From: a bacterium
GTDB lineage: Bacteria > Myxococcota_A > UBA9160 > SZUA-336
NCBI GenBank assembly: GCA_024226335.1
Contig: JAAELY010000266.1
Coordinates: 9,515-73,514, forward strand
DNA: 64,000 bases
Reading direction: 5' to 3'
Shown here: piece after piece, positions 2,481 to 36,668 of the stretch
Layout of the letters: the number at the start of each line of letters is the position of its first letter
Numbering within the stretch: the stretch's first letter is position 1
Position numbers and translations under genes: made by a program
Notes under the pieces: generated by a model
What the model was told of the DNA's origin: nothing
Databases searched by the model: none
The model's input: only the letters and a program-made list of their open reading frames with translations

Positions 2481-2509
2481 CAGGTCTCCTCCTCAGATAG
2501 CTGAAAGAA

Positions 2510-4813: not shown

Positions 4814-4961
4814 TTCATGTCTCGCGGCGCTTCTGCGTAGGCGTGGACGACCCGCCGAGTGTGAAGTCGGTATGCTGCCACTCGCGAATCGGCCGATCTG
4901 GCCCTCAGAAATGTGTCGCACGTGATTGGTACTATTCCGGTCGCTCTTGAAGGAGAACCCA

Positions 4962-6191: not shown

Positions 6192-6227
6192 AAACTCGGG
6201 CCTGCCCCCCGCGTGTTTTCCGACCGA

Positions 6228-7424: not shown

Positions 7425-7499
7425 CGCTTGTCTCCTACGGCTCGAATATCGAGCCTGTCGATCCCTCTTTCGTCACGGATCTTCTGCCGGGTCTCTCTC

Positions 7500-13211: not shown

Positions 13212-13488
13212 GTCGGAAATCTACCGGAGTCCCGATTGCTGGCAAGGCGAGAACTCGGTCCTTTCCGTCAGCTTTATCGCGGAGTGTCAGGGGTGACGCG
13301 AGTGTCCGCGGTCGTGGCGGAACTGACGTCTCGCGGATCCTAAAGACCCGTTCGCAAGAGGATTTCCGCGGGACAATTCTGTCGCCGTTCGGCCAGGTCC
13401 AGGCTCGGTTTTTCTGCAAATCAAACGCGATTGAGTCTGACTCCGGGTCCGGGTAGGCTGGGCCCGAACTTTCCAGGAGGGCCGTGGA

Positions 13489-13791
13489 TTGATCGTAGTT
13501 GCCGGAAGGATCCAACTGGATCCCGCAAATCGAGAGCAGGCCGTTGCCGCCGCGGTCGAGATGATGCGCGAGACCCGGAAAGAAGCCGGGTGCATCTCCT
13601 ACACCTTTTCGACAGATCTTTCCGATCCCGGCGAGTTTCACATCTTCGAGGAATGGGAGTCGCAACAGGCGCTCGACGCTCATCTGGCTTCTCCTCATAT
13701 GGCGGTTTTCCAGCAGACCTTCGGAGGTTTTGGGATTACCGCGATGGACGTGCAGAAGTACCAGGTGTCCTCGGTCGGACCCATTCACTGA
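13489..13791 (+). CDS. Antibiotic-biosynthesis-monooxygenase (ABM) domain protein
   Basis: About 100 aa with a ferredoxin-like ABM pattern (IVVAGRIQL ... FHIFEEWESQQALDAHLASPHM). Confidence 0.55.
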   Translation: MIVVAGRIQLDPANREQAVAAAVEMMRETRKEAGCISYTFSTDLSDPGEFHIFEEWESQQALDAHLASPHMAVFQQTFGGFGITAMDVQKYQVSSVGPIH

Positions 13792-13838
13792 GGGGATCGC
13801 TTCACTGACCTGTCGGGTCGATAGATAGAATGCCGTAA

Positions 13839-19638: not shown

Positions 19639-19787
19639 TGCTGGGAGTCTACCGCGATCGGCCCGGCTGGCGTGGATTTCCCGGCCTGGGCAGTCTCTGC
19701 AGATTCCACCCGAAGTCCGTAGCTGCACCGGCTTCCAGGGCGAAGAATGGGCTATACAATCAGCGGGGACCTGCTCGCGAAGGGAGC

Positions 19788-20708
19788 ATGAGAATGAGTG
19801 CGGTCAATTCGATCCTGGTGGCTACGGACTTCTCGTCGCATGCGGAGTGCGCGCTCGAGCAGGCGACGAAGCTGGCCAGCTTGCTGGGCGCACGAGTCCA
19901 CCTGGTGTTCGCGGTTCACGTACCGGTGCAACCCCTGCTTCCCGAGATGGCCATCGTTCCGGCCGACATGATCGGACAGATGCGCGAGTTCGGGCGCACG
20001 AAGGCGCAAGAGACGGCCAACAAGATCGAGGCCGCCGGAGTCGAGTACGAAATCCATATCGAAGAAGGCGAGCCGTCGCGCGTCGTGCTCGATCTGGCGG
20101 AGCGCCTGAAAATCGACATGATCGCCGTGGGACGGCGCGGGCAGAGCGCACTGGAGCACGTGATCGTGGGAAGTGTCGCCGAGCGCCTACTTCGTTCGGC
20201 CGACTGTCCCGTACTGACCGCCGTTTCCGAAGGAGGCGAACTCTCGCTCGACGAGATTCTGGTGGCGACCGATCTCTCCGACGCAGCGATCGGCGCGCTT
20301 GGCGTCGCCCAGACGATTGCTGCTGCATCGCCGCCGACCCGGCTCTTGCTCGCATACGCCCACCCGCCCGGGATCCAGGCGGTGCGCTTTCTGGCGCAGA
20401 CCGACGAGCGGGTCTCGATCGGTACCGGTATTCCGATCCTCGACTCGCTTGCCGAAGATGTGGTCACCCGGGCTTCTGCCCTGCTCGATCCCGCGCGCAA
20501 CGGCGGGGTTCAATCCTACCTGGTCACCGGCGATGGCAAACCGGACACCTTGATTCTCGAAACCGCTGAGCAGCGCAATGTGAAGCTGATCGTCATGGGG
20601 ACGCACGGCCGCCGCGGTATCTCACATCTGGTCCTGGGAAGCGTGGCCGAGCGCGTTGTCCACGGCGCGAGTTGTTCGGTCATCACGGCTCGGATTCAGG
20701 GTTCGTGA
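19788..20708 (+). CDS. Tandem universal stress protein (two UspA domains)
   Basis: Two UspA modules, each ending in the ATP-binding G-x2-G-x9-G-S motif (VGRRGQSALEHVIVGSVAERLL and MGTHGRRGISHLVLGSVAERVV). Start at MRMS with AGGGAG upstream. The six-frame ORF extends much further 5' but that part overlaps the opposite-strand gene. Confidence 0.8.
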   Translation: MRMSAVNSILVATDFSSHAECALEQATKLASLLGARVHLVFAVHVPVQPLLPEMAIVPADMIGQMREFGRTKAQETANKIEAAGVEYEIHIEEGEPSRVVLDLAERLKIDMIAVGRRGQSALEHVIVGSVAERLLRSADCPVLTAVSEGGELSLDEILVATDLSDAAIGALGVAQTIAAASPPTRLLLAYAHPPGIQAVRFLAQTDERVSIGTGIPILDSLAEDVVTRASALLDPARNGGVQSYLVTGDGKPDTLILETAEQRNVKLIVMGTHGRRGISHLVLGSVAERVVHGASCSVITARIQGS

Positions 20709-20995
20709 CAGAGAGTTCGGGCGAAGCGCAATCTTCGGCTGAGACTGAGGCGGATTTTTCGATCGTCGCACTCCGGCACGCGCGGAGGGTCGTGATTTTC
20801 GTCGTCGGAACCACGGTGTGTCTTTTCGGGGTCGCCATGATGGTGCTCCCGGGTCCCGGAGTCCTGGGAGTGGCCCTGGGGGTTTCGATCCTGGCGACCG
20901 AGTTCGGCTGGGCGCGTCGGCTGCTGCGCCGCGCGAAACAGGCCGTTGGAGTCGGGGACTCGAAGTCGGACGAGCCCGGGCCCGACTCGCTATAA
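20705..20995 (+). CDS. PGPGW-motif small transmembrane protein
   Basis: Contains VLPGPGVLGVAL (PGPGW/TIGR02611-like) within two predicted TM helices. Probable GTG start overlapping the Usp stop (GTGA). An alternative in-frame start exists at 20672. Confidence 0.45.
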   Translation: MTESSGEAQSSAETEADFSIVALRHARRVVIFVVGTTVCLFGVAMMVLPGPGVLGVALGVSILATEFGWARRLLRRAKQAVGVGDSKSDEPGPDSL

Positions 20996-21005
20996 TCGCT
21001 CCCAG

Positions 21006-21977
21006 ATGCCCGACCAACCCTCGCAACGCAGAAAGCTGGCCGCCATCCTCATGGCCGACGTCTCCGGCTTCAGTCGCCTGATGGGCGCGGATGAAGAGGG
21101 TACGACCGCACGCATGCAGGACTTCCACCGCCGTGTGCACTCACTGATCGAATCCCATCAAGGTCGACTGGTGGACACCGCGGGAGACTCCGTGTTCGGG
21201 GAGTTCGACAGCGTGGTCAACTCGGTGCGCTGCGCCTACGAAATCCAGACGGAGCAAGCTCGCGAGAATCGCGAAGAAGCGGACGATGCGCGCATCGATA
21301 CGCGTATCGGCATTCATCTGGGCGACGTAATCGTCGAAGCACAGCGCGTCTGGGGAGATGGCGTGAACATCGCCGCCCGACTCGAACAGTTTGCGCAACC
21401 CGGATCGATCTGTGTTTCGGAGGCGGTCTACCAGCAAATCTTCAACAAGCTGGACTACGAGTTCCAGGACATGGGTGTCCAGGAGTTGAAGAACATCGAT
21501 CAGCCGCTGCGGGTCTACGGCATCCCCGGACCCGGATCGCTTCCGGTCGCTGCACCTTCGTCCAGCGTCTCTCACCCGCGCACGCGTCGACGTGCGCACC
21601 GACGGCATTCCAAGGACCCAAACCCGCGGGGAAGGCGCGAGCCCTCGACCTGGCTCGAAGCCTTCATGCATCCGCTCGATCTGATTTCGCTGATCATCGC
21701 TGTCGCATTGATCACCTCTCCGCTGCTGATGGTTCCTACGGGTGGCATCTTTTCGACGCTGGGAGGCGTGCTCGCGGGGGTGAGCCTGGGGCGCATCTGG
21801 CGGGCCGTCAGCGGAATTCGCGGCCATCTACAGATTCCACTGGGAGTGGGTATCGCCTCCGGCGCGGCCTTCACCCATTGGAGCGTGCCAACCGACGGAC
21901 TGTTTGTCGTGGCCGGGCTGATCGTGGCCGCAGTCGGCGTGAGTCGCGTGTTTACCGAGCGCCGACTCGCACGCTGA
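21006..21977 (+). CDS. Class III adenylate/guanylate cyclase with C-terminal transmembrane region
   Basis: Cyclase homology domain near the N-terminus (LAAILMADVSGFSRLMG, DTAGDSVFGEF, IGIHLGDVIV, NIAARLE). C-terminal 120 aa contain three to four hydrophobic helices. Confidence 0.7.
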   Translation: MPDQPSQRRKLAAILMADVSGFSRLMGADEEGTTARMQDFHRRVHSLIESHQGRLVDTAGDSVFGEFDSVVNSVRCAYEIQTEQARENREEADDARIDTRIGIHLGDVIVEAQRVWGDGVNIAARLEQFAQPGSICVSEAVYQQIFNKLDYEFQDMGVQELKNIDQPLRVYGIPGPGSLPVAAPSSSVSHPRTRRRAHRRHSKDPNPRGRREPSTWLEAFMHPLDLISLIIAVALITSPLLMVPTGGIFSTLGGVLAGVSLGRIWRAVSGIRGHLQIPLGVGIASGAAFTHWSVPTDGLFVVAGLIVAAVGVSRVFTERRLAR

Positions 21978-23680: not shown

Positions 23681-24259
23681 CTAGAGCTCGTCGATGGACT
23701 GGATGATCTTGCCGACCACTCCGTAGTCGAGAGCTTCCTGGGCCGTCATCCAGAAATTCCGGTCGGTGTCTTCCTCGATGCGTTCGAGTGACTGGCCGGT
23801 CTGCTCGGACAGGATGCGATTCAGGCGCTTGCGCATCTTGACGATCTCCTGCGCCTCGATTCCGATGTCGACGGCCTGACCGCGCACACCGCCCATCGGC
23901 TGGTGCAGGAGGAAGCGCGTGTTCGGCAGGCAGAAACGGTCTTCCTTGGCTGGGGCCACGAAGATGTGCGCACCCGCGCTTGCGACCCAGCCTGTCCCCA
24001 GAATCTTCACGCGCGGCTTCACGAAGCGAATGACGTCGTGGATCGTATCGCCCGCCTCCACGTGGCCGCCCGGCGAGTTGACGAACATGACGATGTCGCC
24101 CATATCGCTTTCCGCCATCGCGATCAGCTTCTTGGAGATTTCCCGGGCGACGTCCATGTTGATCTCGCCGTACAGGAAAATCCGCCGCTTCTCGAAGAGC
24201 GTCTCTTCGAGTCGCATCGGGAAGGGCATTGGCGTTTCGCTGGCGGGCTTGTCACTCAT
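23681..24259 (-). CDS. clpP: ATP-dependent Clp protease proteolytic subunit (ClpP family), solitary
   Basis: Complete catalytic triad context (GWVASAGA Ser, LLHQPMGG His, DTDRNFWMTAQEALDYG Asp). No clpX or clpA adjacent. Confidence 0.8.
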   Translation of the reverse strand: MSDKPASETPMPFPMRLEETLFEKRRIFLYGEINMDVAREISKKLIAMAESDMGDIVMFVNSPGGHVEAGDTIHDVIRFVKPRVKILGTGWVASAGAHIFVAPAKEDRFCLPNTRFLLHQPMGGVRGQAVDIGIEAQEIVKMRKRLNRILSEQTGQSLERIEEDTDRNFWMTAQEALDYGVVGKIIQSIDEL

Positions 24260-25047
24260 GCGTCCGGGTCTCCTTGAAGGCAGGGAGACTAGCGCCCCGG
24301 GCGCCCGCTCCCCACCCCGGCCGTAGGCGGACTCAGGGGCTCGAAGCCCCGATATCGTCCTCCCTCAACGATGATGGCCGCGATCGGCGCAGAAGTGCGA
24401 TCTGGCACCCGGAAAACGAGCAAGTCCTGAACCCGGTTTCCGTGACCGGGTGGGGCCGTTCCTCGTTGCGACAGCTACTTCCCTGGGAAAACCGTGCGAC
24501 GTAACTCGAATCGATTGCGACCCGGGTAAACTGTCTGCCAAGCTGTGGGGTCAGATAAATGGGACAAACGCGCGAGCACACACGGTGTAATCTCAAACTT
24601 GGGGAATTCGAGTCAACGGAAATAGATACGAGCTACGGCCCGATTCTCCTCCACCGAGAAGGTGGGTTCCATCACAGACATCCTATGATCGAGAGGCTTT
24701 CATCTGAAATGACAGAGAGATACTTTCCGTTCTGGCGAGAAGCTCCGCTGATGATCCGCACTGACCGGGAATTCATGTCCCGAGACCGAGGGCCAGAGGC
24801 CTCCGCGAGGGTGCGATTGCTGGACAATGTGGGCGTCGAGAGGGGGGGGGTGGCCGCGAATCGAGGCTTCCATCCCACGGCAGCTTCCGCCGGAACCTCC
24901 CGATTCAGATCATGGAGGTGGATGTCGGGGTTCTTCGCAAATCTGCCACAGGTTCTTTGGGTCGCCTCCGATGGGAACCGGACAATGAAACCCAATTTTG
25001 AATCCGACGATCCCGGTCTGCCGTACACAGGAGAATCGCATTCCGTC
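24260..25047 (+). promoter_or_regulatory. Long (about 790 bp) AT-richer non-coding leader/promoter region upstream of the 25.0-35.8 kb operon and divergent from clpP
   Basis: Local GC is visibly lower than the flanks. No convincing ORF: the in-frame extension of the downstream gene is acidic and not signal-peptide compatible. Contains an 8-bp palindrome AATCGATT at about 24509 and a G9 tract. Confidence 0.3.
24842..24850. repeat. Poly-G homopolymer (G9)
   Basis: A directly read run of nine G at about 200 bp upstream of the first operon gene, in an otherwise mixed-sequence leader. Confidence 0.9.
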
Positions 25048-26253
25048 ATGCACTCTCCGGTCTCTCGCGTTTTCTCGAGAACATGCGCGACACTACTGCT
25101 CGCTTTAGCTGTGCTGGCCTCGCCACCCTATGTTCGGGCGGGGGAGCCGGAAGACGATCCGCTGCTCGAACTCGGTACTGAAGACGGTCATGGCGGCGAA
25201 GACTTCATGAAGTACGACCGCGATCAGATCAAAAAGCAGGTCAAGACCTTCATCCCGCCGCTGCTGAGCCCGGCCTTTACCCAACATGCTTTCGTTCTTC
25301 CTCCTGGTCTGTTCAGGATGGGCCTTTCGCATCGGATCGTGTCGATCGATGGCAACGACTTCTTCAAGAACGGCAACACCAATCGAGCCGTGTTTGCAAA
25401 CTCGGAAGTCGACCGGGAACTGACCGATCTCGACATCTTCTACGGATTCGATCTGAATCGCGAGTACCTGCACGCCTTCACGGTGAGACTCAACATCCCG
25501 TACAAGAACTCGCGGGTTCGCGGCTACGTCCATCCCGGGGGGCTACAGGCACTCAACGCGCACAACACCGCAAGTACCCAGGAACTCGGAGATATCGGAC
25601 TCTTCCTCAAGAAGAAGCTCATGGATCAGGGCAACGGCCCGATCGGAATCGCAGCCGTCGGCGCGGTCTTCTTCCCGACCGGGGACAACGACGAAAGGTA
25701 CGGAAACGACGGGACGATCATGATGCAGATGCCACCGGCTGCACCGACCAGTTCTATCTTCGGGCGGTTTTCCGACGACGGTCGTCTCCCATCCACGCTA
25801 CAGCCCGGCACGGGGAGTTTCAGCTACCTGGGTGGGATGTTCCTGACCCGACAGTTTGATTGGCGTGGGCTTTCGTTGCGCGGCGCCTTTCACCTCGGTG
25901 CGACCTACCGGCTCGTGTTCAAAGAAGACGGGGTCGATCCCGGCGATACCGCGACGTATTTTGCGTCGCTGGTCATGCCGATCCGAAAGGATTTCTTGTC
26001 CGCGGATCTGACCTGCATCGTGTTCGACCACGAAGACGACAGCTACAGCGGGACGTTCATGGATCCGGTCCTGGGCGTGATTCCGCGACCGGACTTTTCC
26101 GGAGGAACGACTGGCTTCATCGCGCCGTCGTTGATTTTCAGTCCCGATCCGCAGTTCCGCGTGACGCTTTCAGCGCTCCTGCGGGTCAAGGATCCGGATC
26201 TCGGACCTGCGCCCCAGTCGATTATCCGACTCGGGTTTTCGGCGACGTTCTGA
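25048..26253 (+). CDS. Outer-membrane beta-barrel protein (MetA-pathway/transporter-like porin family candidate)
   Basis: Signal peptide (MHSPVSRVFSRTCATLLLALAVLASPPYVRA). Alternating amphipathic beta-strand pattern throughout. C-terminal aromatic residue (..LGFSATF) typical of OM barrels. Start at ATG 25048. Confidence 0.5.
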   Translation: MHSPVSRVFSRTCATLLLALAVLASPPYVRAGEPEDDPLLELGTEDGHGGEDFMKYDRDQIKKQVKTFIPPLLSPAFTQHAFVLPPGLFRMGLSHRIVSIDGNDFFKNGNTNRAVFANSEVDRELTDLDIFYGFDLNREYLHAFTVRLNIPYKNSRVRGYVHPGGLQALNAHNTASTQELGDIGLFLKKKLMDQGNGPIGIAAVGAVFFPTGDNDERYGNDGTIMMQMPPAAPTSSIFGRFSDDGRLPSTLQPGTGSFSYLGGMFLTRQFDWRGLSLRGAFHLGATYRLVFKEDGVDPGDTATYFASLVMPIRKDFLSADLTCIVFDHEDDSYSGTFMDPVLGVIPRPDFSGGTTGFIAPSLIFSPDPQFRVTLSALLRVKDPDLGPAPQSIIRLGFSATF

Positions 26254-26315
26254 CAGATGGAAAAGAAATACTCGATCGCGTTGGAAATGCTTCGACCTGA
26301 TTGTGCGGGGAAAAC

Positions 26316-29153
26316 ATGATGCGGATGTCAAAGAGAATCCTGGTCGGTTGCGTCATCGCCTCGATGAGCCTCTGGTGGATGGCGCCCATGGGAACCGCGA
26401 AGGTTCTCATGCACACGCCGGATGGTCGTGTCCTGCACCTCAAGGGAGGCACGGCTCAACCGGACCTGAGCCGGTTCCGGTCCGCATTGCAGAGCAAGGT
26501 CATGGATCGCCGCTTCCACACGAACGAGAACGGCTATCTCGCCAATGAGGCCTACTCCACCAGTCAGACCGGCTTCAATGACATGGTCAAGGCCGGAATT
26601 CCGGTGGCGTACAAGCCGGAGTTCCACTGGATCTCACACCAGGAAATGTACTGGAACGCGCGCTTCCTGTTGCAGTGGGCCGGCGCGGCCTCCCGACTCG
26701 GGATCTCCATGGTGCACGGCCCCTACTGGACATTGAAGGCCGATGAATTCTCGAGGCGGAACCGCTTTGGGCGAGATCGCGGTGAACGCTCTCTGTCCAA
26801 CAAGGACATCCTCATTGGCATCTACCTGCCGCTCTACTACTCCCGCACCGGCTTTCCGCGTGTGTTCGATTCGGCCTTTCCTACTTATCTGCAGTACGCA
26901 TCCGGCGACCCCCGCCTGGTGGGGCCGGTCGAGGTCGGGGACGACTTCGACGACCCGCAGAGCAGTAAGAAGGGCGGCTGGGGTGTGCCTCGCTATTTCC
27001 TCGATTGGACGAACCTGCGCTGGAATCACGACCGGATGGACACCACTATCCACATGGGAGGGCTGGGACAGTTCCTGAAGAGAAGGGCGCAGTGGACCGG
27101 CTATATGTTCCACAGCACGCACGTGGAGCAATCACCCTCGGACCCCGACGGCGATGAGATCTCCCTGCTCGGGAACGACGCGGAAGAAGGCTTCCGCGGA
27201 ACCGTTCTGGCCACCATGGCAATCAATACCATGCTCGAGGCCAAGGCCGCATTCTTCGCTGATGCGAAGGGGAAGAAACTCGGCGGGCTCAATCCCTTCA
27301 AGTACGATCCTGAAAACGGCCTGCGATACCTTCCGCATACCATCAAGCCGAACATTCTCTGGGTAGGGGATCTTCCCGAGCGGCTCTGGTCGGTCAGCAT
27401 TGCCGACAACTCCAGTCAGCTCTGGGACCAGGCGTCCTGGATCTGGGCAACCACCGAGTACAGTCACTTCGTCCTCTGGTACAACGATCAGGTCTTCACC
27501 GACAATCCGCCCGCGGATGGTGGCATCCTCGAAAAGCGGGTTGGACTCGTCTCGCGCGGGATGGCCAATGTCATCATCAAGAACCTCAGGGCCATGCACA
27601 CCCGCAAGGGCATCCTCGTTTCGGAGTGGACTCCCACAGGAGGGACCGGAAAGGTCCTGAGCATGCGGGATGCTGCCATGACCATGTCGGCCTTGAAGGA
27701 GTACGACGATCGTCACGAGTTCCTCGATGAGGATGAGGATCTCCGAGAAGACGCAGTCACCATGCTGATGGATCTCGCGGATTTCCTGGTGAAGGTCCAG
27801 GCGAAGGACGGATCGTTCTACGAGAAATACGACGTGACCAGCGGCGAGGGGCTCGGTGAGAACACTGTGTCCGCTCCCAACTGGGCCGGTATCAAGGCGC
27901 TGGTCGTGGCCTGGCAGAAGACGGAAGAGGAGGCTTACGCCCGCGCTGCGCGAAAGACCTTCAACCTGATGAATAGTAAGTACTGGGTTGAAAAACACGG
28001 CCTCTATCGCACGAGACTCGGCGACGACACGGTCACCCTCACTCCGTACGACATCGCGATCACACTGGGCGCTTTGCGCGAGACGCTCTTTGCGACACCT
28101 CTTCATCTGGTCGAACCACAACTCGACAGGATCACCCGTTGGTGGGTTCAGACCATGGATTCGAGTGGCATGCAGCAGACCGAGGACAATCGCACGGGTG
28201 AACTCGCCTTCGGCACGGCCGGGATGGACGAAGATGCGGACGGGATTCCCTTCGTCGCCGGCGGTTATGGGGAATACGGCACAGCACCGGTGACCGCGGC
28301 AAAGGTCGCGGTCAACATCGGCGGGTCCGAGAACTCCGCGTTCGCGGCTCTTGATGGAGACGCCTACAACGCCCAGAAGTACGCCGAGGTCAAATTCGCC
28401 TACGTCACCCAGTCTCGCAAGGAACAAGACGAGCTCCTGCTGCCTCTGGACATCCCTTCCGAGGGGCTGATCGAGCGTCCTCCGATGCAGAAGTTCAACG
28501 GAACCACCATCCCACTGGCCTCCAGCAAGCCGGTCGAACGCGGGCTGGGAATCAAACTCGGTCTTACAGGCAAGCAGATCTTCGAGATCAACTGCGTCCT
28601 GTGCCACGGTTTTTCGGGAGAGGGGATTACCGGTCTCTCGCTAGAGAAGGACGTGATGACGTTCTCACACGAAGAGATGTTCAAGGTCCCGAACGAGGGC
28701 CGGCACGAGAAACTCATGCCTCCGTGGGGTGTCGGGAACAAAGACAGTTTCGGTGGTCCGCTGAGTGAAGAAGAGATCCACCTCATCGTCAACTACGTGC
28801 AGAGTGACGAGTTTCGCGAGAAGTTCCAGGCCCATCAGGATGCTCTTCACGCCAAGGGCGATCCTCCGAAGGATCCTTTCGAGTACCTCTCCCGGCAATA
28901 CCAGAAGGGCACTTTGGAAAGCGCGACCGCTGACGATATTCGCCGCATCTCCCAGGCTCAGTGCAGGGCGAGTGATTGCATTCCGGAATCCCACAAGGTG
29001 TTCCGCCGGCTCCTGGCCGAGTCGCAGGGGAAGCAATCTCCGCGACTGGCCGATGCGGCTTCGGAGGAAGCGAAGGACCGTCCACAACCTTCTGCGGGGA
29101 GTGAATCCAGTCAGGCGCCGCCCGACAAGACAACAATCCTTACACGGCCATGA
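26316..29153 (+). CDS. Large secreted protein of unknown function with C-terminal monohaem cytochrome c domain
   Basis: Signal peptide (MSKRILVGCVIASMSLWWMAPMGTA). About 780 aa with no motif I recognise, then a class-I cytochrome c module (CVLCHGFSGEG ... LMPPWG). Start is ambiguous among ATGs at 26316, 26319 and 26325. The stop overlaps the next gene (ATGA). Confidence 0.6.
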   Translation: MMRMSKRILVGCVIASMSLWWMAPMGTAKVLMHTPDGRVLHLKGGTAQPDLSRFRSALQSKVMDRRFHTNENGYLANEAYSTSQTGFNDMVKAGIPVAYKPEFHWISHQEMYWNARFLLQWAGAASRLGISMVHGPYWTLKADEFSRRNRFGRDRGERSLSNKDILIGIYLPLYYSRTGFPRVFDSAFPTYLQYASGDPRLVGPVEVGDDFDDPQSSKKGGWGVPRYFLDWTNLRWNHDRMDTTIHMGGLGQFLKRRAQWTGYMFHSTHVEQSPSDPDGDEISLLGNDAEEGFRGTVLATMAINTMLEAKAAFFADAKGKKLGGLNPFKYDPENGLRYLPHTIKPNILWVGDLPERLWSVSIADNSSQLWDQASWIWATTEYSHFVLWYNDQVFTDNPPADGGILEKRVGLVSRGMANVIIKNLRAMHTRKGILVSEWTPTGGTGKVLSMRDAAMTMSALKEYDDRHEFLDEDEDLREDAVTMLMDLADFLVKVQAKDGSFYEKYDVTSGEGLGENTVSAPNWAGIKALVVAWQKTEEEAYARAARKTFNLMNSKYWVEKHGLYRTRLGDDTVTLTPYDIAITLGALRETLFATPLHLVEPQLDRITRWWVQTMDSSGMQQTEDNRTGELAFGTAGMDEDADGIPFVAGGYGEYGTAPVTAAKVAVNIGGSENSAFAALDGDAYNAQKYAEVKFAYVTQSRKEQDELLLPLDIPSEGLIERPPMQKFNGTTIPLASSKPVERGLGIKLGLTGKQIFEINCVLCHGFSGEGITGLSLEKDVMTFSHEEMFKVPNEGRHEKLMPPWGVGNKDSFGGPLSEEEIHLIVNYVQSDEFREKFQAHQDALHAKGDPPKDPFEYLSRQYQKGTLESATADDIRRISQAQCRASDCIPESHKVFRRLLAESQGKQSPRLADAASEEAKDRPQPSAGSESSQAPPDKTTILTRP

Positions 29154-30019
29154 CAGGAATAGATGTGACGATGGCAGAACCTCAAAACTCAGAAATGCTC
29201 TCCGAAAATCCGATTCAGCGCCTCGGTGCGCTCGTGTTGGTGCTCTTGCTCGTGCTGCCGATCACTGCTCACGCGGCCGGTTACAAGGAAACCCGGGTAG
29301 AAAACGGCGGGAGCATCACCGGCAAGCTGAGTTTCTCCGGTGAACTCCCGGCCGACGCCGTCGAAATGATCGCGGTCAACAAGAACCCGGAAGTCTGCGG
29401 AGAAGGCTATCGCGAGGTCGTCTGGGTGGACGTCGAGAACGGCGCGTTGCGCGGTGCCTTCGTCTATCTGCACAAGATCAAGAAAGGCAAGGCCTGGAGC
29501 CCACCAGACGGTGGCAAGTACATGATCAATCAGAAGGGCTGCCGTTTTCGACCTTGGGCCCAGGTCGTTCGCCAGGGCGATATCCATATCAAACACAGCG
29601 ACCAGGGTGTGCAACACAACATCAATATGGTCGAACTGATCGGGGTCGACAAAGGGCGAGCGGTCGAGAGGCCGCTGATCAATCGCAATCAGCCCGATCC
29701 CGGTGAAGCCATCGAGCAGATCAAGACGGTTCGCGCGCCTCATATCGCCATGAACTGCCAGGTTCACAACTTCATGTTCGGTTTCATGATGGCTCCTAAG
29801 AGTCCGTACGCCGTGGCGGTTGAAGAGGATGGCAGTTACGTCCTCGACAACGTGCCCGCGGGCAAATACACGCTCAAATCGTGGCATCCCCGGCTGGGAG
29901 TCCAGAAGAAGAAAATCACCGTTCCCGCGAACGGAGAGGTGGTCGCCGACTTCGAGTACACAAAAGACTCGGCTTCGAAGAAGCGAAGGCGACCCAGAAA
30001 GACCAAGGCAGAGAAATGA
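29150..30019 (+). CDS. Secreted protein with carboxypeptidase-regulatory-like/Ig-like beta-sandwich (function unknown)
   Basis: Signal peptide (LGALVLVLLLVLPITAHA). C-terminal SYVLDNVPAGKYTLKSWHP pattern resembles CarboxypepD_reg beta-sandwiches. Lys/Arg-rich tail. Translationally coupled on both sides. Confidence 0.45.
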   Translation: MTGIDVTMAEPQNSEMLSENPIQRLGALVLVLLLVLPITAHAAGYKETRVENGGSITGKLSFSGELPADAVEMIAVNKNPEVCGEGYREVVWVDVENGALRGAFVYLHKIKKGKAWSPPDGGKYMINQKGCRFRPWAQVVRQGDIHIKHSDQGVQHNINMVELIGVDKGRAVERPLINRNQPDPGEAIEQIKTVRAPHIAMNCQVHNFMFGFMMAPKSPYAVAVEEDGSYVLDNVPAGKYTLKSWHPRLGVQKKKITVPANGEVVADFEYTKDSASKKRRRPRKTKAEK

Positions 30020-31239
30020 CCGAAGAACACGGAGAACGAATCGTGATCACATCAGCACGGAGATTTGCTAAACGAATTCAGCTCGCGATGGCCTGTGCCG
30101 CGACTGCGTTGATGGTTCTCGCTGGCGCTATTGCAGTGGGAACGACGGAGACGGCCCGAGCCGAATCGGCGGATGAAGCGGGCGCATATCCGGCGATCGG
30201 CCCCTTGCCGACCCGAGATGCCCCGAAGGCCTCACTGGTCGAGATGGGTCGGCGCCTGTTCTTCGATCCGCGAATTTCCGGGGATGCCGGTCAGAGCTGC
30301 GCGACCTGTCACGATCCCGCGCAGGGATTCACTCGACAGACCGATGTCGAAGGCAAACCCATGCTCCTGTCCGACGCGTATCCGGGCATTCTCTACTTCC
30401 GCAATACACCGACATTGATCAATACCGCTTTTAAGGCGGACTTTGCCAACGTTGGTTGGGCCTGGGACGGTCGCATGGGTGCCAACCTGAACGATGTCGT
30501 TCGAGATCAGCTGACCGAGAGCATGATCATGAATATGGACATGCGCCTGATGCACGAGCGCATGAAGCAGGACCCGGTCTACGTAGGCATGTGCAAGGAG
30601 AACTTCGGCGGCGAGTGTAATTCGAGCGCCGGTCGCAAGGCTCTGGTCGCATTCATGGAATCCTTGGTGTCGAAGGACGCTCCCTTCGATAGCGGAACCG
30701 TTTCCGAGGCGGCCGGGCGCGGACGAGTTCTCTTCGAGGGCAAGGCGGACTGCATCCGCTGTCACAACGGTTCCTACTTCTCCGACGGTGAGGCGCATGA
30801 TACCGGCGTTTCCGAGAACCTGGATATCTTCCGAGATCCGTTGCGGCATGTCGGTCTGCGTGCCGTGTACAGCAATCACGGTGTGCCCAAGACGGATATG
30901 TGGCGGCGAGACGTCGGCTATTTCCTGGTGAGCAAGAACTACGGAGACGTGGGCAGTTTTATTACTCCGACGTTGCGGGAGCTCAAGTACACGGCTCCCT
31001 ATATGCACAACGGTGTGATCGGCACGCTGAATGAGGTCGTGGAGTTCTACGACCAGGGCGGCGGGCACGACGATCCACTGGCGAATGAGCTGAAACCTCT
31101 CGGACTTAGTACGGAGGAGAAGAGTGATCTCGTCGCCTTCCTCGAGAGTCTTTCCAGCGCCACTCCGATCGCTGTCGAGCTGGTGGAGATCCCCGAAACC
31201 TACGAGCCGATCGACGAATGGCTCGGCGTCCACAACTGA
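30016..31239 (+). CDS. Dihaem cytochrome c peroxidase (CCP/MauG family), copy 1
   Basis: Two haem motifs (CATCHDP and CIRCHNGSYF). Conserved CCP regions (FFDPRISGD, TPTLRELKYTAPYMHNG). The ATG overlaps the upstream stop (ATGA). Confidence 0.8.
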   Translation: MTEEHGERIVITSARRFAKRIQLAMACAATALMVLAGAIAVGTTETARAESADEAGAYPAIGPLPTRDAPKASLVEMGRRLFFDPRISGDAGQSCATCHDPAQGFTRQTDVEGKPMLLSDAYPGILYFRNTPTLINTAFKADFANVGWAWDGRMGANLNDVVRDQLTESMIMNMDMRLMHERMKQDPVYVGMCKENFGGECNSSAGRKALVAFMESLVSKDAPFDSGTVSEAAGRGRVLFEGKADCIRCHNGSYFSDGEAHDTGVSENLDIFRDPLRHVGLRAVYSNHGVPKTDMWRRDVGYFLVSKNYGDVGSFITPTLRELKYTAPYMHNGVIGTLNEVVEFYDQGGGHDDPLANELKPLGLSTEEKSDLVAFLESLSSATPIAVELVEIPETYEPIDEWLGVHN

Positions 31240-31282
31240 TTTCAGGCGTCCCGTACGACACCGCAGTTTGAAGGTAAACAAA

Positions 31283-32521
31283 ATGAAGTCGCCAAACAGA
31301 ACGCAGGGCTTGTTGATCGCGCTCTTGCTCGTCGTCGCTCCTGTGGCATTCGCCCAGGAAGACCCCGATTTCGATCCGCCTCTGGCACCACTTCCGCCAC
31401 CACCGGCGCCTCCGGACAACCCGATCACGCCCGCGAAGACGGAGCTCGGCAAACTCCTGTTCTTCGACACACGCTTGACGGGTGACGCGAGCTTGAGTTG
31501 TGGCGACTGTCACGATCCGAAGAAGGGTTGGGGCTCCAGCGGACCGATCTCGCGCGGTTATCCCGGTGCGGTCCACTGGCGCAATTCCCATACTGCCGTG
31601 AACTCCGCCTACCTGGGGAAACTCTTCTGGCAGGGAAGCGCCAAGAGCCTCGAAGGCCAGGCTCCGACCGCCAATCGCGGTGCGGTGGCGGGAAATGGCG
31701 AGCGGGACGTGATGCAGAGTCGGCTTCGCCAGACTCCCTACTACATCAAGGCATTCAAGGAAGTCTTCGGCACCGAGCGACCCAATCTCGGCGACGCCTG
31801 GCAGGCTGTCGCGACGTTCGAACGCGCGGCGTTGTCTCAGCTCGATACGCCACTGGACCAGTATCTCGCGGGCGACGAGTCGGCTCTTTCCGAAGAGGCG
31901 ATCGAGGGACTCGAGTTGTTCCGCGGCAAGGCCGGTTGCATCGAGTGCCACAACGGCCCTCTGCTCACGGATGAGAAATACTACAACCTGGGTCTACCGC
32001 GGCCCATCGAGTGGGAATCGATCGGTCTGAACACGATCACCTTCCGCTGGGAGACCTACGCCAAGGGTGCTCCCGAAAAGAGCTATCGAGAGTGGAAGGA
32101 CGACGCGGGGCTGTACTTCACGACCAAGCGCAAGGATGACATCGGGAAGTTCCGCACTCAGCCACTCCGGTATCTCCTGTACACCCCTCCGTACGGGCAC
32201 GCCGGGCAGTTCTACACACTGGAGGAGGTCGTCGACTTTTACGACGAAGGTGGAGGCGAGAACGAGTTCACCGATGGCACACACGGTTTCAATACGAAGA
32301 CGCCGATCCTGAAGCCTCTCAATCTCAGCGATGAAGAGAAAGAGGTGTTGGTGATCTTCCTGGAAGAAATCAGCGGTGAGGAAATCACGATGGCCGTTCC
32401 GAAGATCCCAATGTACGAGGCGATGCCCGATGTGGCTGAACTGACGCAAGCTTCGGCCAAGCGAATCGGCCTCGAGACGTATCTGTCCTCTCTTGCTGGA
32501 AAGGAGGAGGTGAGCAAATGA
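31283..32521 (+). CDS. Dihaem cytochrome c peroxidase (CCP/MauG family), copy 2, with Pro-rich N-terminal linker
   Basis: Signal peptide. PLAPLPPPPAPPDNP linker. Haem motifs CGDCHDP and CIECHNGPLLT. Conserved C-terminal PPYGHAGQFYTLEEVVDFY. Confidence 0.8.
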   Translation: MKSPNRTQGLLIALLLVVAPVAFAQEDPDFDPPLAPLPPPPAPPDNPITPAKTELGKLLFFDTRLTGDASLSCGDCHDPKKGWGSSGPISRGYPGAVHWRNSHTAVNSAYLGKLFWQGSAKSLEGQAPTANRGAVAGNGERDVMQSRLRQTPYYIKAFKEVFGTERPNLGDAWQAVATFERAALSQLDTPLDQYLAGDESALSEEAIEGLELFRGKAGCIECHNGPLLTDEKYYNLGLPRPIEWESIGLNTITFRWETYAKGAPEKSYREWKDDAGLYFTTKRKDDIGKFRTQPLRYLLYTPPYGHAGQFYTLEEVVDFYDEGGGENEFTDGTHGFNTKTPILKPLNLSDEEKEVLVIFLEEISGEEITMAVPKIPMYEAMPDVAELTQASAKRIGLETYLSSLAGKEEVSK

Positions 32522-33072
32522 CCGAGCAGAAGAAATCCTCGTCGTGTCGGGGTGGTTGCATTACCAGACGTGAGGCTCTGCTAGGAGGCGCTGGAGTGAT
32601 CACCAGCACCGTCTTGCTCAGCACTCTTCCCGGATGCGAGAAAAGCGAACCGGTGCCCGTTCAGGTGTCCCGTCATCCGGGCAAGCTGATCGGCAAGCTG
32701 AGTGAGTTGAAACAGAATCAATCCGTATCTTTTTCATTTCCGGAAGGCGCCGCCAACGCGACGGGCATGTTGATCAAGATGGGTGTTCAGGCCGGAGGAG
32801 GCATCGGACCGGAACAGGACATCGTCGCTTTCAATACGACCTGTCCTCACATGGGCGGACAACTCTACGGGCGCTACATACCCGAGGAGCAGGCTCTGGG
32901 CGCCTGTCCCCATCACCTTTCATCGTTCGACCTGACTCGCCACGGCATGGTCATCGCCGGCCATGCCACCGAGAGCTTGCCGCAAGTGCTGCTTGAACTC
33001 GACGGAGACGACATCTACGCCGTGGGCCTGATTGGTCTGATCTACGGCCACACTTCAAATCCCGAAGCCTGA
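32518..33072 (+). CDS. Rieske [2Fe-2S] small subunit with twin-arginine signal (AioB/IdrB-like)
   Basis: TAT motif TRREALLGGAG. Rieske boxes CPHMGG and CPHHLS. Strong AAGGAGGAGG Shine-Dalgarno. ATGA overlap with the upstream peroxidase gene. Confidence 0.75.
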   Translation: MTEQKKSSSCRGGCITRREALLGGAGVITSTVLLSTLPGCEKSEPVPVQVSRHPGKLIGKLSELKQNQSVSFSFPEGAANATGMLIKMGVQAGGGIGPEQDIVAFNTTCPHMGGQLYGRYIPEEQALGACPHHLSSFDLTRHGMVIAGHATESLPQVLLELDGDDIYAVGLIGLIYGHTSNPEA

Positions 33073-33088
33073 TCGAGGAATAGGAATC

Positions 33089-35782
33089 ATGTCTGCAAAA
33101 GATTCAAAGCCATTCTACAAGTCGTCGGAGCAGGTTCCGCTTCCGCCAAAAGATGCCGAGGTCCTCACCACGTGTTGCGACTACTGCATCGTGGCGTGTG
33201 GACAGAAGGTCTACCGCTGGCCCGCCGACGGTCCCAACGGGGGCATGAAGAAGAGCGAAAATGCGCTCAACCGAGATTACCCATTGGCTCCGATGGTGGG
33301 CAACTGGCTTGGACCGAACCAGTTCACCCAGGCGATGCACAACGGGAAGCTCCACAATATTGCCGTCGTACCGGACGGCGACGCGACCGTCGTCAATGTG
33401 GGCGGAAATCACAGTATTCGCGGTGGTTGCATTGCCCAGAAGGTGTACAGCGAGAAGAAGCCGACTCGGGATCGCTTGAAGCACCCGATGATTCGCATCG
33501 CCGGGAAACTGACACCGGTGAGCTGGGACCTGGCCCTGGACGTCGCCGCCGAGGTCTCCAAGCACGTCATCAAGCACCACGGCGAAGACGCCTGGGCCCT
33601 GAAGTACTTCAGCTATCAGTTCTACGAGAACACGTACGCGCTCACGCGCTTGGCGTTCAAGAGCATCAATACGATGGCGGTCGCCCAGCACGACCACCCG
33701 GCGATCGTGGATGCGACTCCCGGCTGGACGGATATCGGCTACGACAGTTTCCCGTCGTCGTACGAGGACTTCCTGCACGCCGATTGCGTCGTGATCTCCG
33801 GAGTGGATCCGTTCGAGACCAAGTCGGTGTTGTGGAGCGAGTGGATTTCTCGGGGCATGATCGAGAACAAGACGAAACTCGTGATGATCAATCCCAGAAA
33901 GACGGTCGGCGTTGCCGCGGCCGAGAAGAACGGCGGTCTGCACCTGGATGTGAATCCCGGCTCCGATACCGTCGTACACATGGCGATCGAGCGTGTGATC
34001 CTGGAAAACGGTTGGGAGGACACCGAGTTCATCAAGAACTGGGTGAACAATTTCTGGGAGACCGATTCCGGTTTCGGTCAGGGAACCCGCAACACGCCCT
34101 GGCAGTGGCGAACCACCTGGGGGAAATTCCAGGTCAAGGACTTCGCCGACTGGAAGAAGTGGATTCTGGAGCAGGAAGAGTCCAAGCCCGATGTCGCTGC
34201 GGCGATTGCCGGGATCGACCCTCAGAAGATCTACAAGGCCGCAGAGATGATGGCCAAGCCGAAAGCTGATGGCGAACGGCCCAAGACCATGATCGCGATC
34301 GAAAAGGGCAACTACTGGTCCAATAACTATCTGAACACTGTTTCGATCGGTACGCTAGGCGTGATTCTCGGATGCAGTGGTCGCAAGGGACGTGGCATCA
34401 CTCGTCTGGGTGGCCACCAGCGCGGTGGGCGGAGCGGGGGCAAGTATCCGACCTGGAAGTCTCCCTACAAGATGCCCGGTCGGCGCCATCATCGGATCGA
34501 CCTGGACCGCTGGGTCGAAGATGGCCACGTGCGCTTTGCCTACGTCGTCGGTACGACGTGGATCCAGTCCATGGCCGGTTCGGGTGATCTGAAGCAGACT
34601 TTCCAAGCGAAGACTCGCGACAATCCGCATCAGATTCAGTCAGCGGATAAGCAGCACATCATCGATACGCTCAAGAAACGAGTCGAGTCGGGCGGGATGG
34701 TGGTCGCCCACCAGGATCTCTATCTCATCGAACCCATCGGTAGTGAATTTGCCGACATCGTGCTTCCTGCTTCGGGTTGGGGCGAGTCGGATTTCACGCG
34801 CTGCAACGGAGAACGTCGCATTCGCCTGTACTCCGGCTTCTACGATCCGCCGGGAGAAGCCTTGCCCGACTGGAAGATCGTTTCCATGTTCGCGAAGAAG
34901 ATGGGATTCGAGGGCTACGACTGGAAGGAGTCCAATGACGTTTTCGAGGAGACCTGTCGCTTCAGTCGAGGCGGTCGAACCGATTACAACGTCTTGCGCA
35001 CGGTCGCCAAACGGAAGGGCATGAAGACCCACGACCTGCTTCGGACCTACGGTACGACTGGATTGCAGTGTCCGCTGCTCCTCGATGGAGAGAAGATCAT
35101 CGAGACCAAACGACTGCACGATTTCGAACGCGATGATCTACCTGCCACGGGGCCAGCGGGGGTGAGCGTTCAGCGCAAGAACCTGATGGCCTTCAAGACG
35201 CACACCGGCAAGCTGAACCTGTTGAAGTCACCCTGGAATATCTGGTCCGATTTCTACGAGTTCATGCGACCCAAAGACGATGAGCTGTGGGTAACCAACG
35301 GGCGCGTCAACGAGATCTGGCAATCGGGTTTCGACGATACAGAGCGTCGTCCGTACATTCAGCAGCGCTGGCCGGACAACTTCCTCGAGATCCATGAGGA
35401 AGATGCGCGCGCCCGCGGCATCGAAACCGGTGACCGCGTCGAGATCGAGTCGAAACGCGTTCCCGTCCAAAAGGATTTCAATCTGGGCGTCAAGAGCGAC
35501 GATATGTGGTTCTCTGGTCTGATGAAGCGCAACCACATCAAGATCGTCACCGGAAAATTCGAAGCGGTGGCTATCATCACTCCGGTCGTGAAAAAGGGAG
35601 TGGTCTTTACGAACTTCCTGGACAAGAACCAACCGGCCAATAGCATCACGCCGAGGGTTCCGGATCCGCTCAGCATGAACTACCGCTTCAAGCTCTCATC
35701 GGGAACGGTCAAGAAGATCGGTGAATCCCCTTACAAGGACACCTACGCCCAGATGAGCCTCAAGAGGCGGAATATCGTTTAG
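33089..35782 (+). CDS. Molybdopterin (bis-MGD) oxidoreductase large subunit of the arsenite-oxidase/iodate-reductase (AioA/IdrA) clade
   Basis: 897 aa with no signal peptide of its own, consistent with TAT hitch-hiking on the Rieske partner. N-terminal Cx2Cx3C (TCCDYCIVACG) [3Fe-4S] motif characteristic of AioA-type enzymes. Molybdopterin oxidoreductase and C-terminal MGD-binding-like regions. Confidence 0.75.
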   Translation: MSAKDSKPFYKSSEQVPLPPKDAEVLTTCCDYCIVACGQKVYRWPADGPNGGMKKSENALNRDYPLAPMVGNWLGPNQFTQAMHNGKLHNIAVVPDGDATVVNVGGNHSIRGGCIAQKVYSEKKPTRDRLKHPMIRIAGKLTPVSWDLALDVAAEVSKHVIKHHGEDAWALKYFSYQFYENTYALTRLAFKSINTMAVAQHDHPAIVDATPGWTDIGYDSFPSSYEDFLHADCVVISGVDPFETKSVLWSEWISRGMIENKTKLVMINPRKTVGVAAAEKNGGLHLDVNPGSDTVVHMAIERVILENGWEDTEFIKNWVNNFWETDSGFGQGTRNTPWQWRTTWGKFQVKDFADWKKWILEQEESKPDVAAAIAGIDPQKIYKAAEMMAKPKADGERPKTMIAIEKGNYWSNNYLNTVSIGTLGVILGCSGRKGRGITRLGGHQRGGRSGGKYPTWKSPYKMPGRRHHRIDLDRWVEDGHVRFAYVVGTTWIQSMAGSGDLKQTFQAKTRDNPHQIQSADKQHIIDTLKKRVESGGMVVAHQDLYLIEPIGSEFADIVLPASGWGESDFTRCNGERRIRLYSGFYDPPGEALPDWKIVSMFAKKMGFEGYDWKESNDVFEETCRFSRGGRTDYNVLRTVAKRKGMKTHDLLRTYGTTGLQCPLLLDGEKIIETKRLHDFERDDLPATGPAGVSVQRKNLMAFKTHTGKLNLLKSPWNIWSDFYEFMRPKDDELWVTNGRVNEIWQSGFDDTERRPYIQQRWPDNFLEIHEEDARARGIETGDRVEIESKRVPVQKDFNLGVKSDDMWFSGLMKRNHIKIVTGKFEAVAIITPVVKKGVVFTNFLDKNQPANSITPRVPDPLSMNYRFKLSSGTVKKIGESPYKDTYAQMSLKRRNIV

Positions 35783-35789
35783 CGACACC

Positions 35790-35828: not shown

Positions 35829-36668
35829 TCACTTCGCTCCTTCACGCTCGTACAGGATGGGATTCAACGGGCTCGCGATCGGATCGCCGACCGCGCAACC
35901 CGGTGCCCAGCGCTTCTGATCGTATTCCTGGAACGCGTCGGCCGGTTCCGCGACGCGCATGTCTCGATCCATATAGATCATCGTCATGGCGGCGCGGGTT
36001 TCTTCGGTCTGGTTCGGGTCCGCCCGGTGGAACGTGAAGCCGTAGTGGAAGCTCACGTCTCCTAGTTCGTAGGGCTCGGCGACCACGCGGATTCCGGCCG
36101 CCGAAAGCGAAGCGGCGATCTCACTCTCTCCGCGCTCACTGATCCCGAAGCGCCGCCCGTGATCCGTTTCCTGGGTTCCCACTGCAAAGGCCAGGGCTCC
36201 CGCTTCGACGGACGTCGCCTGCAGCGGAATCCAGGCGGTGATGCTCAGTCCGCTCGACATCGGCCAGAAGAACTGATCGACGTGCCATGGGGTCGCTCCA
36301 CCGCCGGTTTCCTTGTAGAGCGCCTGGTCGTGCCACATGCGCACGCCTTCGCATCCCAGTAGTTCGTTGGCGATGCGCGCGCAGCGCAGGTTCAGACTGA
36401 AGGGACGGATGGCTTCGTGGCGCTCCCAGAGGTTCGTGATCTGGATGAAGGCCTGCGCGTAGGCGTTTCGCTCTTCCAGCGGGAGCACGTTCGGATCTTC
36501 CGCCGAAACGATGCTCGTGATCTGCTCTGCGAAAAACTCCAGAAGCTCCTTCGAGAAGACCCCGGGAAGCCGGATGAAACCATCGCTGCGATAAGCCGCG
36601 ATCTGCTCGGCGGAAAGAGAGTAGGGACGATCGAGTTCTTCCCGGAAACGCGCGGGTAGATCCTGCAA
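35829..36668 (-). CDS. Phytanoyl-CoA dioxygenase (PhyH) family Fe(II)/2-oxoglutarate oxygenase
   Basis: PhyH-family pattern with an HxD...H facial triad context (PWHVDQFFWP ... SFHYGFTFH). Confidence 0.7.
   Translation of the reverse strand: MQDLPARFREELDRPYSLSAEQIAAYRSDGFIRLPGVFSKELLEFFAEQITSIVSAEDPNVLPLEERNAYAQAFIQITNLWERHEAIRPFSLNLRCARIANELLGCEGVRMWHDQALYKETGGGATPWHVDQFFWPMSSGLSITAWIPLQATSVEAGALAFAVGTQETDHGRRFGISERGESEIAASLSAAGIRVVAEPYELGDVSFHYGFTFHRADPNQTEETRAAMTMIYMDRDMRVAEPADAFQEYDQKRWAPGCAVGDPIASPLNPILYEREGAK

Follow-up and report, generated by a model that had tools for sequence, protein, structure and literature searches.

A probable iodate reductase gene cluster preceded by a predicted blue-copper protein and an uncharacterised channel-toroid-cytochrome gene pair

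Introduction

In seawater, oxidised iodine is mainly present as iodate. Iodate reductase, Idr, has so far been described as a four-gene unit from a few proteobacterial isolates and from metagenome-assembled genomes (MAGs) of oxygen minimum zones (OMZs). The clade of its catalytic subunit, IdrA, is sister to the arsenite oxidase AioA within the molybdenum-bis-pyranopterin guanine dinucleotide (Mo-bisPGD; dimethyl sulfoxide (DMSO) reductase) superfamily. The gene order idrP2, idrP1, idrB, idrA has been published for Pseudomonas sp. SCT, Denitromonas IR-12 and Candidatus Methylomirabilis iodofontis (PMC10989891; PMC8692401), and two peroxidase genes lie upstream in idr loci, unlike aio loci (PMC8692401). 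One of the five isolated dissimilatory iodate reducers is Azonexus hydrophilus NCP973, and the OMZ clusters are described as consisting of four genes only (PMC13455634). Here we analyse a 64-kb stretch of contig JAAELY010000266.1 (the window), in which seven consecutive plus-strand genes, named A to G from 5' to 3', occupy positions 25048-35782; the loci with which we compare them bear L-numbers.

Our analysis indicates that this cluster probably encodes a periplasmic iodate-reductase-type system, idrP2-idrP1-idrB-idrA (genes D to G), which is preceded by a predicted, presumably dedicated blue-copper carrier (gene C) and by a separate two-gene module (genes A and B).

Results

Genes F and G encode a Rieske-molybdopterin enzyme. 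Gene F (32518-33072, plus strand, as are all seven genes) specifies a 184-amino-acid (aa) small subunit of the IdrB type with a Pfam Rieske [2Fe-2S] domain, the ligand motifs CPH...CPHH and a twin-arginine motif, TRREAL, that predicts export by the twin-arginine translocation (TAT) pathway. Gene G (33089-35782) specifies an 897-aa Mo-bis-pyranopterin catalytic subunit of the IdrA type. It matches the Pfam domains Rieske_3 (3Fe-4S), Molybdopterin and Molydop_binding, has an N-terminal Cx2Cx3C [3Fe-4S] motif (C30, C33 and C37) and lacks a leader peptide of its own. Together with the CxxCH counts of the haem proteins described below, these features bear out the domain calls of the first-pass annotation of this DNA.

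A tblastn search of plasmids located the idr cluster of Azonexus NCP973, which reads peroxidase, peroxidase, Rieske, Mo, and which is also labelled 'arsenate reductase'. In identity to the Azonexus idrP2, idrP1, idrB and idrA products, whose genes follow in the same order, the proteins encoded by D to G reach 42, 53, 50 and 54%, respectively. Each of the four best-matches its positional counterpart, and the similarity of G to Azonexus IdrA (53.8%) extends over the full length. Of the genome loci, 81 contain the upstream stretch in full, and every one of these keeps the peroxidase-peroxidase-Rieske-Mo order. At the level of sequence, D-E-F-G are shown to be orthologous, position by position, to the four idr genes of a bacterium that was isolated as an iodate respirer, and the assignment of the cluster to iodate is well supported by this homology.

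In public databases, G is named 'arsenate reductase (azurin) large subunit' because the NCBIfam arsenite-oxidase models just exceed their cut-offs: G scores 396.6 on TIGR02693 (cut-off 359) and F scores 106.7 bits on TIGR02694 (cut-off 95.65). Were this name correct, F and G would constitute an arsenite oxidase, AioBA, and the cupredoxin encoded by gene C could be its azurin-like electron acceptor, AioBA being known to reduce azurin-type cupredoxins. However, G shares just 26-28% identity with AioA proteins encoded on plasmids (27-28% with those of Acidiphilium and Bosea), compared with 54% to the IdrA of an iodate respirer that itself carries the same misleading annotation. AioA sequences from the PDB score about 255 bits against G, and F is 50% identical to Azonexus IdrB but 35-39% identical to AioB. 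The two upstream peroxidases are as expected of idr rather than aio loci (PMC8692401). Furthermore, both plasmid AioA reference loci carry ars or aioXSR-type genes, whereas no ars, aioXSR, aio-type cytC, cld or molybdenum cofactor (Moco) genes were found among the approximately 37 window open reading frames (ORFs) scanned; for these ORFs, the first-pass statement that ars, aioSRX and cld-like genes are missing holds.

The position of G in a bootstrapped tree argues likewise. This tree was built by neighbour joining (NJ) only and had Azonexus IdrA as its one validated reference. The Idr clade, including G, stood apart from AioA with 100% bootstrap support. Within it, again with 100% support, G belonged to a subclade comprising the window, two Planctomycetes/Phycisphaerales MAGs and MAGs of marine Alpha- and Gammaproteobacteria, some of them of Tara Oceans and OMZ type. 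Members of this subclade are 68-87% identical to one another in IdrA and about 54-60% identical to other Idr proteins.

Inspection of the substrate site gave a mixed picture with respect to AioA. Its arsenite-site residues, which we take to be His195, Glu203, Arg419 and His423 (Alcaligenes faecalis numbering; the list reportedly originates from Ellis et al. 2001), have three equivalents in G, consistent with an arsenite oxidase. Glu203, in contrast, is lost and aligns with Ala, as the AioA segment HNRPAYNSE reads HDHPAIVDA in G. The Idr-type motif HD..[S/A] is present in G, and an insertion of about 20 residues after GGHQ (GG..KSPYK.PGRR) occurs in G, in Azonexus IdrA and throughout the Idr clade, whereas AioA lacks it. 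Motif and insertion appear to make up a shared Idr signature, in which no residue is experimentally defined as iodate-specific. We therefore regard an arsenite oxidase as highly improbable. The first-pass annotation had proposed an AioBA/IdrBA-type core, to be placed by phylogeny and by its substrate-channel residues; that proposal is upheld and can be narrowed to the Idr type by gene order, positional orthology, clade and active-site signatures.

Both peroxidase genes are predicted to encode di-haem cytochrome c peroxidases. Gene D (30016-31239), in the idrP2 position, encodes 407 aa with a CCP_MauG match at 1.5e-31, the haem motifs CATCH and CIRCH and an intact PYMHNG; its best match is the first Azonexus peroxidase (42%). 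Gene E (31283-32521), in the idrP1 position, encodes 412 aa with a CCP_MauG match at 1.2e-33 and the haem motifs CGDCH and CIECH, and best matches the second Azonexus peroxidase (53%). In bacterial di-haem peroxidases, the electron-transfer haem is expected to have the Met of PYMH(N/D)G as axial ligand. PYMH occurs in 82 of 84 E-type homologues, whereas E reads PYGHAG, with a Gly codon, GGG, at 32195-32197 where its three closest relatives, including those in L001 and L002, have ATG.

Directly upstream of the peroxidases, gene C ends at 30019 and has three possible starts, at 29150 (289 aa), 29171 (282 aa) and 29195 (274 aa). Pfam detected in its product only a weak CarboxypepD_reg-like C-terminus. 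The AlphaFold model (predicted local distance difference test, pLDDT, 84.5) contains two domains, with a Greek-key cupredoxin fold. The predicted copper ligands, all on the plus strand, are His (29615-29617), Cys (29756-29758), His (29765-29767) and Met (29774-29776); as H149, C196, H199 and M202 they are invariant in an alignment of 23 C homologues, along with two further cysteines, and their C-x2-H-x2-M spacing is amicyanin-like. A divergent cupredoxin, C', follows gene B in 21 of 36 B-centred loci, and all 53 C and C' sequences from the two genomic contexts conserve the four ligand residues. One distant member of the C family exceeds the Pfam Copper-bind threshold. C is thus predicted to be a secreted type-1 copper cupredoxin fused to a C-terminal transthyretin/CarboxypepD_reg-like domain. 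Where the first-pass annotation saw an uncharacterised secreted beta-sandwich protein, secretion stands and the remainder is revised to a predicted blue-copper protein kept beside idr across the marine subclade.

This linkage was evident from the distribution of C. It adjoins idr in 31 of 82 idr loci overall: in every one of the 17 loci of the window subclade, in about 10 of 18 loci of intermediate lineages and in 4 of 46 loci of the Roseibium/Pseudovibrio/Ruegeria/Vibrio/SAR324 group, and it is absent from the Azonexus locus. In the window subclade it lies directly upstream of idrP2 in all loci but one, and the three C homologues that were sampled from the C side all adjoin idr genes. C is most likely a dedicated single-electron shuttle for IdrB and/or the peroxidases. 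Pseudoazurin is the electron donor to the di-haem peroxidase of Paracoccus pantotrophus, and azurin is the electron acceptor of AioBA; therefore, the pairing of a cupredoxin with the Idr system has precedent. Our full-text literature search found no paper joining idr genes with a cupredoxin or a planctomycete.

We also considered C as a substitute for the small cytochrome c encoded after Azonexus idrA. This idea was not supported: the cytochrome had no detectable homologues in the other loci, and the presence of C was not anti-correlated with nearby CxxCH ORFs.

Idr operons of relatives contain additional genes. In 49 loci (L004-L014, L022, L085, L120, L121 and about 35 more), a HEAT-repeat protein of about 730 aa with weak NblB/CpcE-lyase-like matches is encoded directly 3' of the Mo gene. 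Its matches are strong in the window subclade and weak in the Roseibium/Ruegeria group, and the window, L001 and L002 all lack it; its gene seems to be a fifth member of marine idr clusters that has not been described before. In non-planctomycete members of the subclade (L004-L014, L022 and L120), a long co-directional extension continues about 2-10 kb downstream of idrA. After the HEAT-repeat protein it encodes a 728-aa membrane protein resembling cytochrome bd subunit I (CydA-like), several c-type cytochromes, a cytochrome c-EB_dh fusion and a cytochrome pair of 223 and 126 aa. None of these extension genes occurs in the window. The extension may represent a dedicated electron path from quinol to Idr.

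Such accessories bear on the possibility that the marine subclade has the Idr architecture but acts on another substrate, for instance a different oxyanion of a halogen or a chalcogen. A different chemistry would then be reflected in the accessory set of cupredoxin, HEAT-repeat protein and A-B, which is absent from the validated Azonexus locus; the subclade is distinct, as its bootstrap support shows, and has its own active-site variant, HDHP[A/S]IVDATPGW, as opposed to HD[TN]PS... or HDKCS.... Yet the peroxidase pair and the gene order are fully kept, and the subclade is nested among the IdrA lineages of the literature, between Azonexus and the SAR324/Alphaproteobacteria group. Idr clusters of a SAR324 MAG and of an alphaproteobacterial OMZ MAG reduced iodate in Escherichia coli (PMC13455634), and the isolate names of two subclade members, NP948 and NP79, suggest the Tara Oceans MAG set screened in that study. 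We thus consider a different substrate unlikely and retain iodate as the probable one.

The two genes at the 5' end of the cluster are of another kind. Gene A (25048-26253, 401 aa) encodes a protein with a Sec-type leader (MHSPVSRVFSRTCATLLLALAVLASPPYVRA) that ends ...SATF, with a terminal Phe. The window copy has no Pfam match; 3 of 10 homologues match PF13557 (Phenol_MetA_deg) weakly, one of them above the gathering score (24.2 versus 22). A profile search of A against PDB sequences returned no solved relative. A is probably an outer-membrane beta-barrel channel, a distant relative of Phenol_MetA_deg as judged by sequence.

Gene B (26316-29153) encodes a secreted protein of 945 aa. Pfam and NCBIfam recognised only its C-terminal cytochrome c domain (about 28566-28805), which has a single CxxCH...M haem site (CVLCH, 28593-28607), and the protein has a lineage-specific tail. 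The AlphaFold model of B has a mean pLDDT of 70.5, rising above 90 over roughly residues 360-610. With this core, Foldseek retrieved the toroids of N-acetylglucosamine (GlcNAc) and cellobiose 2-epimerases (probability 1.0; 9-14% identity; template modelling (TM) score to target 0.45-0.55), and a profile search against the PDB gave the cytochrome c domain plus very weak epimerase matches (E about 1e-3). The modelled core is a confidently predicted (alpha/alpha)6 toroid.

The B family comprises 142 homologues, 42-76% identical and conserved over their full length, all from MAGs and all named 'cytochrome c'; clustering at 50% reduces the full-length family to about three representatives. Many D, E, R, H and W residues are invariant, H338 and H425 among them. 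Invariant residues also abound at positions 120-238 of the protein (26675-27029; HGPYWTLKA, RDRGER, TGFPRVFD), where pLDDT is below 50; this region may bind a cofactor or a partner, or may form an oligomer interface, which would stay disordered in a model of the monomer. Taken by itself, the toroid is related to proteins sorted by the type IX secretion system (T9SS) and to giant surface proteins. A porin-cytochrome conduit across the outer membrane (MtrCAB-like) was rejected as an explanation of A-B because B has a single haem.

Genes A and B travel together. Among the 36 B-centred loci, an A homologue lies directly upstream of B in all 33 that have upstream sequence. In 6 of about 15 informative A-B loci, idr genes lie within 10 kb, in three arrangements: A-B-C-idr (window, L001, L002 and L089), A-B-cytochrome c-cytochrome c-C-idr (L085), and A-B-cytochromes with idr about 7 kb further on (L087). 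Only 2 of the 81 genome idr loci carry A-B. In other A-B loci, genes for cupredoxins or c-type cytochromes come next; where the cytochrome pair and the cytochrome-EB_dh protein are encoded after A-B, as in several loci, they have homologues among the carriers that the window subclade encodes in its long idr operons. On a Candidatus Binatia MAG (L122, GCA_046758645.1, 4149-13821), the genes after A-B specify, in order, two cytochromes c, an Rrf2 regulator, a further cytochrome c and the alpha and iron-sulfur beta subunits of a type II DMSO-reductase-family enzyme. Therefore, A-B also occurs beside a second class of periplasmic molybdoenzyme.

On a 1.4-Mb Methylococcaceae contig (L088, 6314-12784), A-B is surrounded by IS21, IS66 and DDE transposases, and A appears to be split into two ORFs. 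This copy suggests that A-B moves between genomes and can decay.

A-B might be functionally unlinked to Idr, a separate periplasmic system, acting for example on glycans or hydrophobic compounds, that is a neighbour by chance. Most A-B loci have no idr genes in reach and few idr loci carry A-B; the relatives of the toroid suggest carbohydrate-type substrates, and one copy sits among transposases. On the other hand, the frequency of idr near A-B, in three arrangements, is far above chance for such a rare gene set, cupredoxin and cytochrome partner families are common to A-B and the extended idr operons, and A-B-C-D of the window type are tightly packed, with gaps of at most 62 nt. We consider chance neighbourhood a serious but doubtful possibility. 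The first-pass annotation had grouped A, B and C as three partners upstream of the enzyme and suggested a conserved-neighbourhood search. They are not one set: C is linked to idr, whereas A-B is a module of its own, autonomous and mostly found without idr, even if it is juxtaposed with idr beyond chance. Apart from B and the two peroxidases, no credible c-type haem protein is encoded in the 64-kb window; the dedicated electron carriers encoded beside Idr are therefore limited to C and the haem domain of B.

The seven genes form a co-directional block between two minus-strand genes, a ClpP gene upstream (23681-24259), divergent from gene A, and a PhyH-family gene downstream (35829-36668). They are not chance ORFs, because every one has many homologues. 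The first-pass annotation counted eight genes, while its own text listed seven; we found no eighth. Of the ATGA overlaps it described, those between C and D and between E and F are certain, and that between B and C exists only if C starts at 29150; with the start at 29171 (NCBI product P0241, 282 aa), B and C are 17 nt apart. The remaining gaps measure 62 (A/B), 43 (D/E) and 16 nt (F/G). The G+C content of the block is 0.58-0.60, compared with 0.62-0.64 for its flanks. Nucleotide similarity to L001, L002 and L089 spans 25131-35783 and ends there, where the flanks of these loci differ. Synteny thus marks out the seven genes as a discrete and portable unit.

The non-coding stretch between ClpP and gene A (24260-25047, plus strand) is, from its position, likely the promoter or regulatory region of the cluster. 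A sigma-70 scan of this stretch found nothing above chance, Rfam gave no match, and its nucleotide sequence is not conserved with L001, L002 or L089. Promoter and terminator scans detected no more sites than in shuffled sequence. Rfam and tRNA scans of the whole 64-kb window gave no match, including none to a Moco riboswitch.

The host genome is probably planctomycete-like. Elsewhere in the window, positions 1617-9326 hold unrelated catabolic genes for a short-chain dehydrogenase, the alpha subunit of a Rieske ring-hydroxylating oxygenase, an AraC regulator, a cytochrome P450, an acyl-CoA dehydrogenase and a flavin monooxygenase. Positions 18813-21977, which lie 3-6 kb ahead of the cluster, encode tandem universal-stress-protein (Usp) domains in a 631-aa protein and, after it, an adenylate/guanylate cyclase. 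On a Halieaceae contig, a cupredoxin-idr cluster likewise has a Usp-domain protein, of 635 aa, encoded upstream; as homology to comparison-locus ORFs is weak (36-39 bits), this is probably a coincidence. The flanking Usp, adenylate cyclase, CoA-transferase, ClpP, PhyH and NMO genes were rejected as members of the system, not being conserved beside idr or A-B loci. ClpP-like ORFs near A-B-C' in L099 and L112 were treated as coincidental, being weak matches (44-45 bits) 1.3 kb away. In L001, the closest relative, the idr block is followed (12736-16468) by genes for a Porin_5 outer-membrane protein, a cytochrome c and a COX1-family protein (haem-copper oxidase subunit I-like), where the window instead has its unrelated minus-strand PhyH gene. 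Porin_5 homologues also lie near idr genes in about a dozen other loci.

Discussion

The published Idr model (PMC8692401; PMC10989891; PMC13455634) suggests how the core would work. IdrB would be exported by the TAT pathway and carry IdrA along, electrons would pass from the Rieske centre via [3Fe-4S] to Mo, and IdrBA would reduce iodate to hypoiodous acid, possibly with H2O2; D and E would clear the peroxide. To this model we would add C as a one-electron shuttle that connects the respiratory chain with IdrB, the peroxidases or both, perhaps docked to a partner by its transthyretin-like tail. Our best guess is that B works in the periplasm as a redox enzyme, that its substrate is a small molecule let in by A and that its haem domain exchanges electrons with the cupredoxin/cytochrome pool that also serves Idr. 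A shared carrier pool would explain why A-B is repeatedly placed beside idr. B may either feed in electrons or remove a reactive iodine product.

Several observations weigh against this interpretation. Regarding the enzyme, G is just 54% identical to the nearest validated IdrA, and Azonexus is weakly placed within the Idr clade, its basal position having 16% bootstrap. The Met-to-Gly replacement in E may be a real change at the haem site, which would then be altered or impaired, or an error of the MAG consensus. As to the accessory genes, C is missing from the validated Azonexus locus and from most Roseibium, Pseudovibrio, Ruegeria and Vibrio loci, and its binding of copper is a prediction. 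B lacks a recognisable redox cofactor beyond its one haem. In about nine informative A-B loci there is no idr gene within 5-10 kb; therefore, A-B is not an Idr subunit. A single transcript for A to G is plausible, the promoter and terminator scans being uninformative on operon status. Finally, if electrons ran straight from B via C into Idr within the periplasm, such a short circuit would conserve no energy; this speaks in favour of a protective role or of links to the membrane chain that are separate.

A broader and more speculative proposal, which we think rather unlikely, is that A-B and its cupredoxin or cytochrome partners constitute an unrecognised periplasmic redox system that works with oxyanion-reducing molybdoenzymes. 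Such a system might feed in electrons from a small-molecule donor or dispose of a reactive product such as hypoiodous acid. This would explain the independent recruitment of A-B beside Idr in three arrangements and beside the type II DMSO-reductase of the Binatia MAG.

In conclusion, the core of this cluster is a known system. What is new is its planctomycete-like host, the conserved predicted blue-copper partner, and its joining with an uncharacterised channel-toroid-cytochrome module; neither the blue-copper partner nor the A-B module is mentioned in the idrABP1P2 literature that we searched. The locus extends Idr to a planctomycete-like lineage. The consistent presence of a blue-copper protein in a large marine IdrA subclade turns the electron route into Idr into a testable question, and the recurrent idr neighbourhood of A-B, a widely distributed two-gene family, offers a first handle on its function. 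Labels such as 'arsenate reductase (azurin)' hide genes of the iodate-reductase type and thus affect metagenomic inventories of the arsenic and iodine cycles.

Comparison with known systems

The predicted fold of C and its His/Cys/His/Met ligand set are those of the small type-1 copper carriers amicyanin, pseudoazurin, plastocyanin and auracyanin. The core of B appears to share its fold with the toroids of the AGE superfamily (GlcNAc 2-epimerase, cellobiose 2-epimerase and YihS isomerase), epimerases and isomerases that have a catalytic His pair. B differs from them in its periplasmic location, in about 250 extra, highly conserved N-terminal residues and in its cytochrome c fusion; to our knowledge, none of the AGE-family enzymes has a haem domain.

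AioBA and F-G are alike in combining a Rieske small subunit with a Mo subunit that has a [3Fe-4S] site; like AioA, G provides no protein ligand to Mo and has Ala at the Ala199 position. They are distinguished by the low identity of G to AioA, the loss of Glu203, the GGHQ insertion, the two upstream peroxidases and the absence of ars/aioXSR neighbours among the ORFs scanned.

Closest are the idrABP1P2 clusters of Pseudomonas sp. SCT, Denitromonas iodatirespirans IR-12 and Azonexus NCP973, which have the same four genes in the same order as D-G. In contrast to these isolates, the window host is planctomycete-like, not a Beta- or Gammaproteobacterium, and its cluster adds the cupredoxin gene and A-B. 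Compared with Azonexus, the window lacks the small c-type cytochrome after idrA and the upstream genes for a sigma-54 two-component regulator; compared with idrP1-type peroxidases, its E lacks the Met of PYMH. The idrABP1P2 clusters of OMZ SAR324 and Alphaproteobacteria (PMC13455634) resemble the window in being marine, uncultured members of the Idr clade distinct from the enzymes of the isolates. Relative to those clusters, the window subclade adds the cupredoxin; its non-planctomycete members further add the HEAT-repeat protein, the CydA-like protein and c-type cytochromes, and the window has A-B instead.

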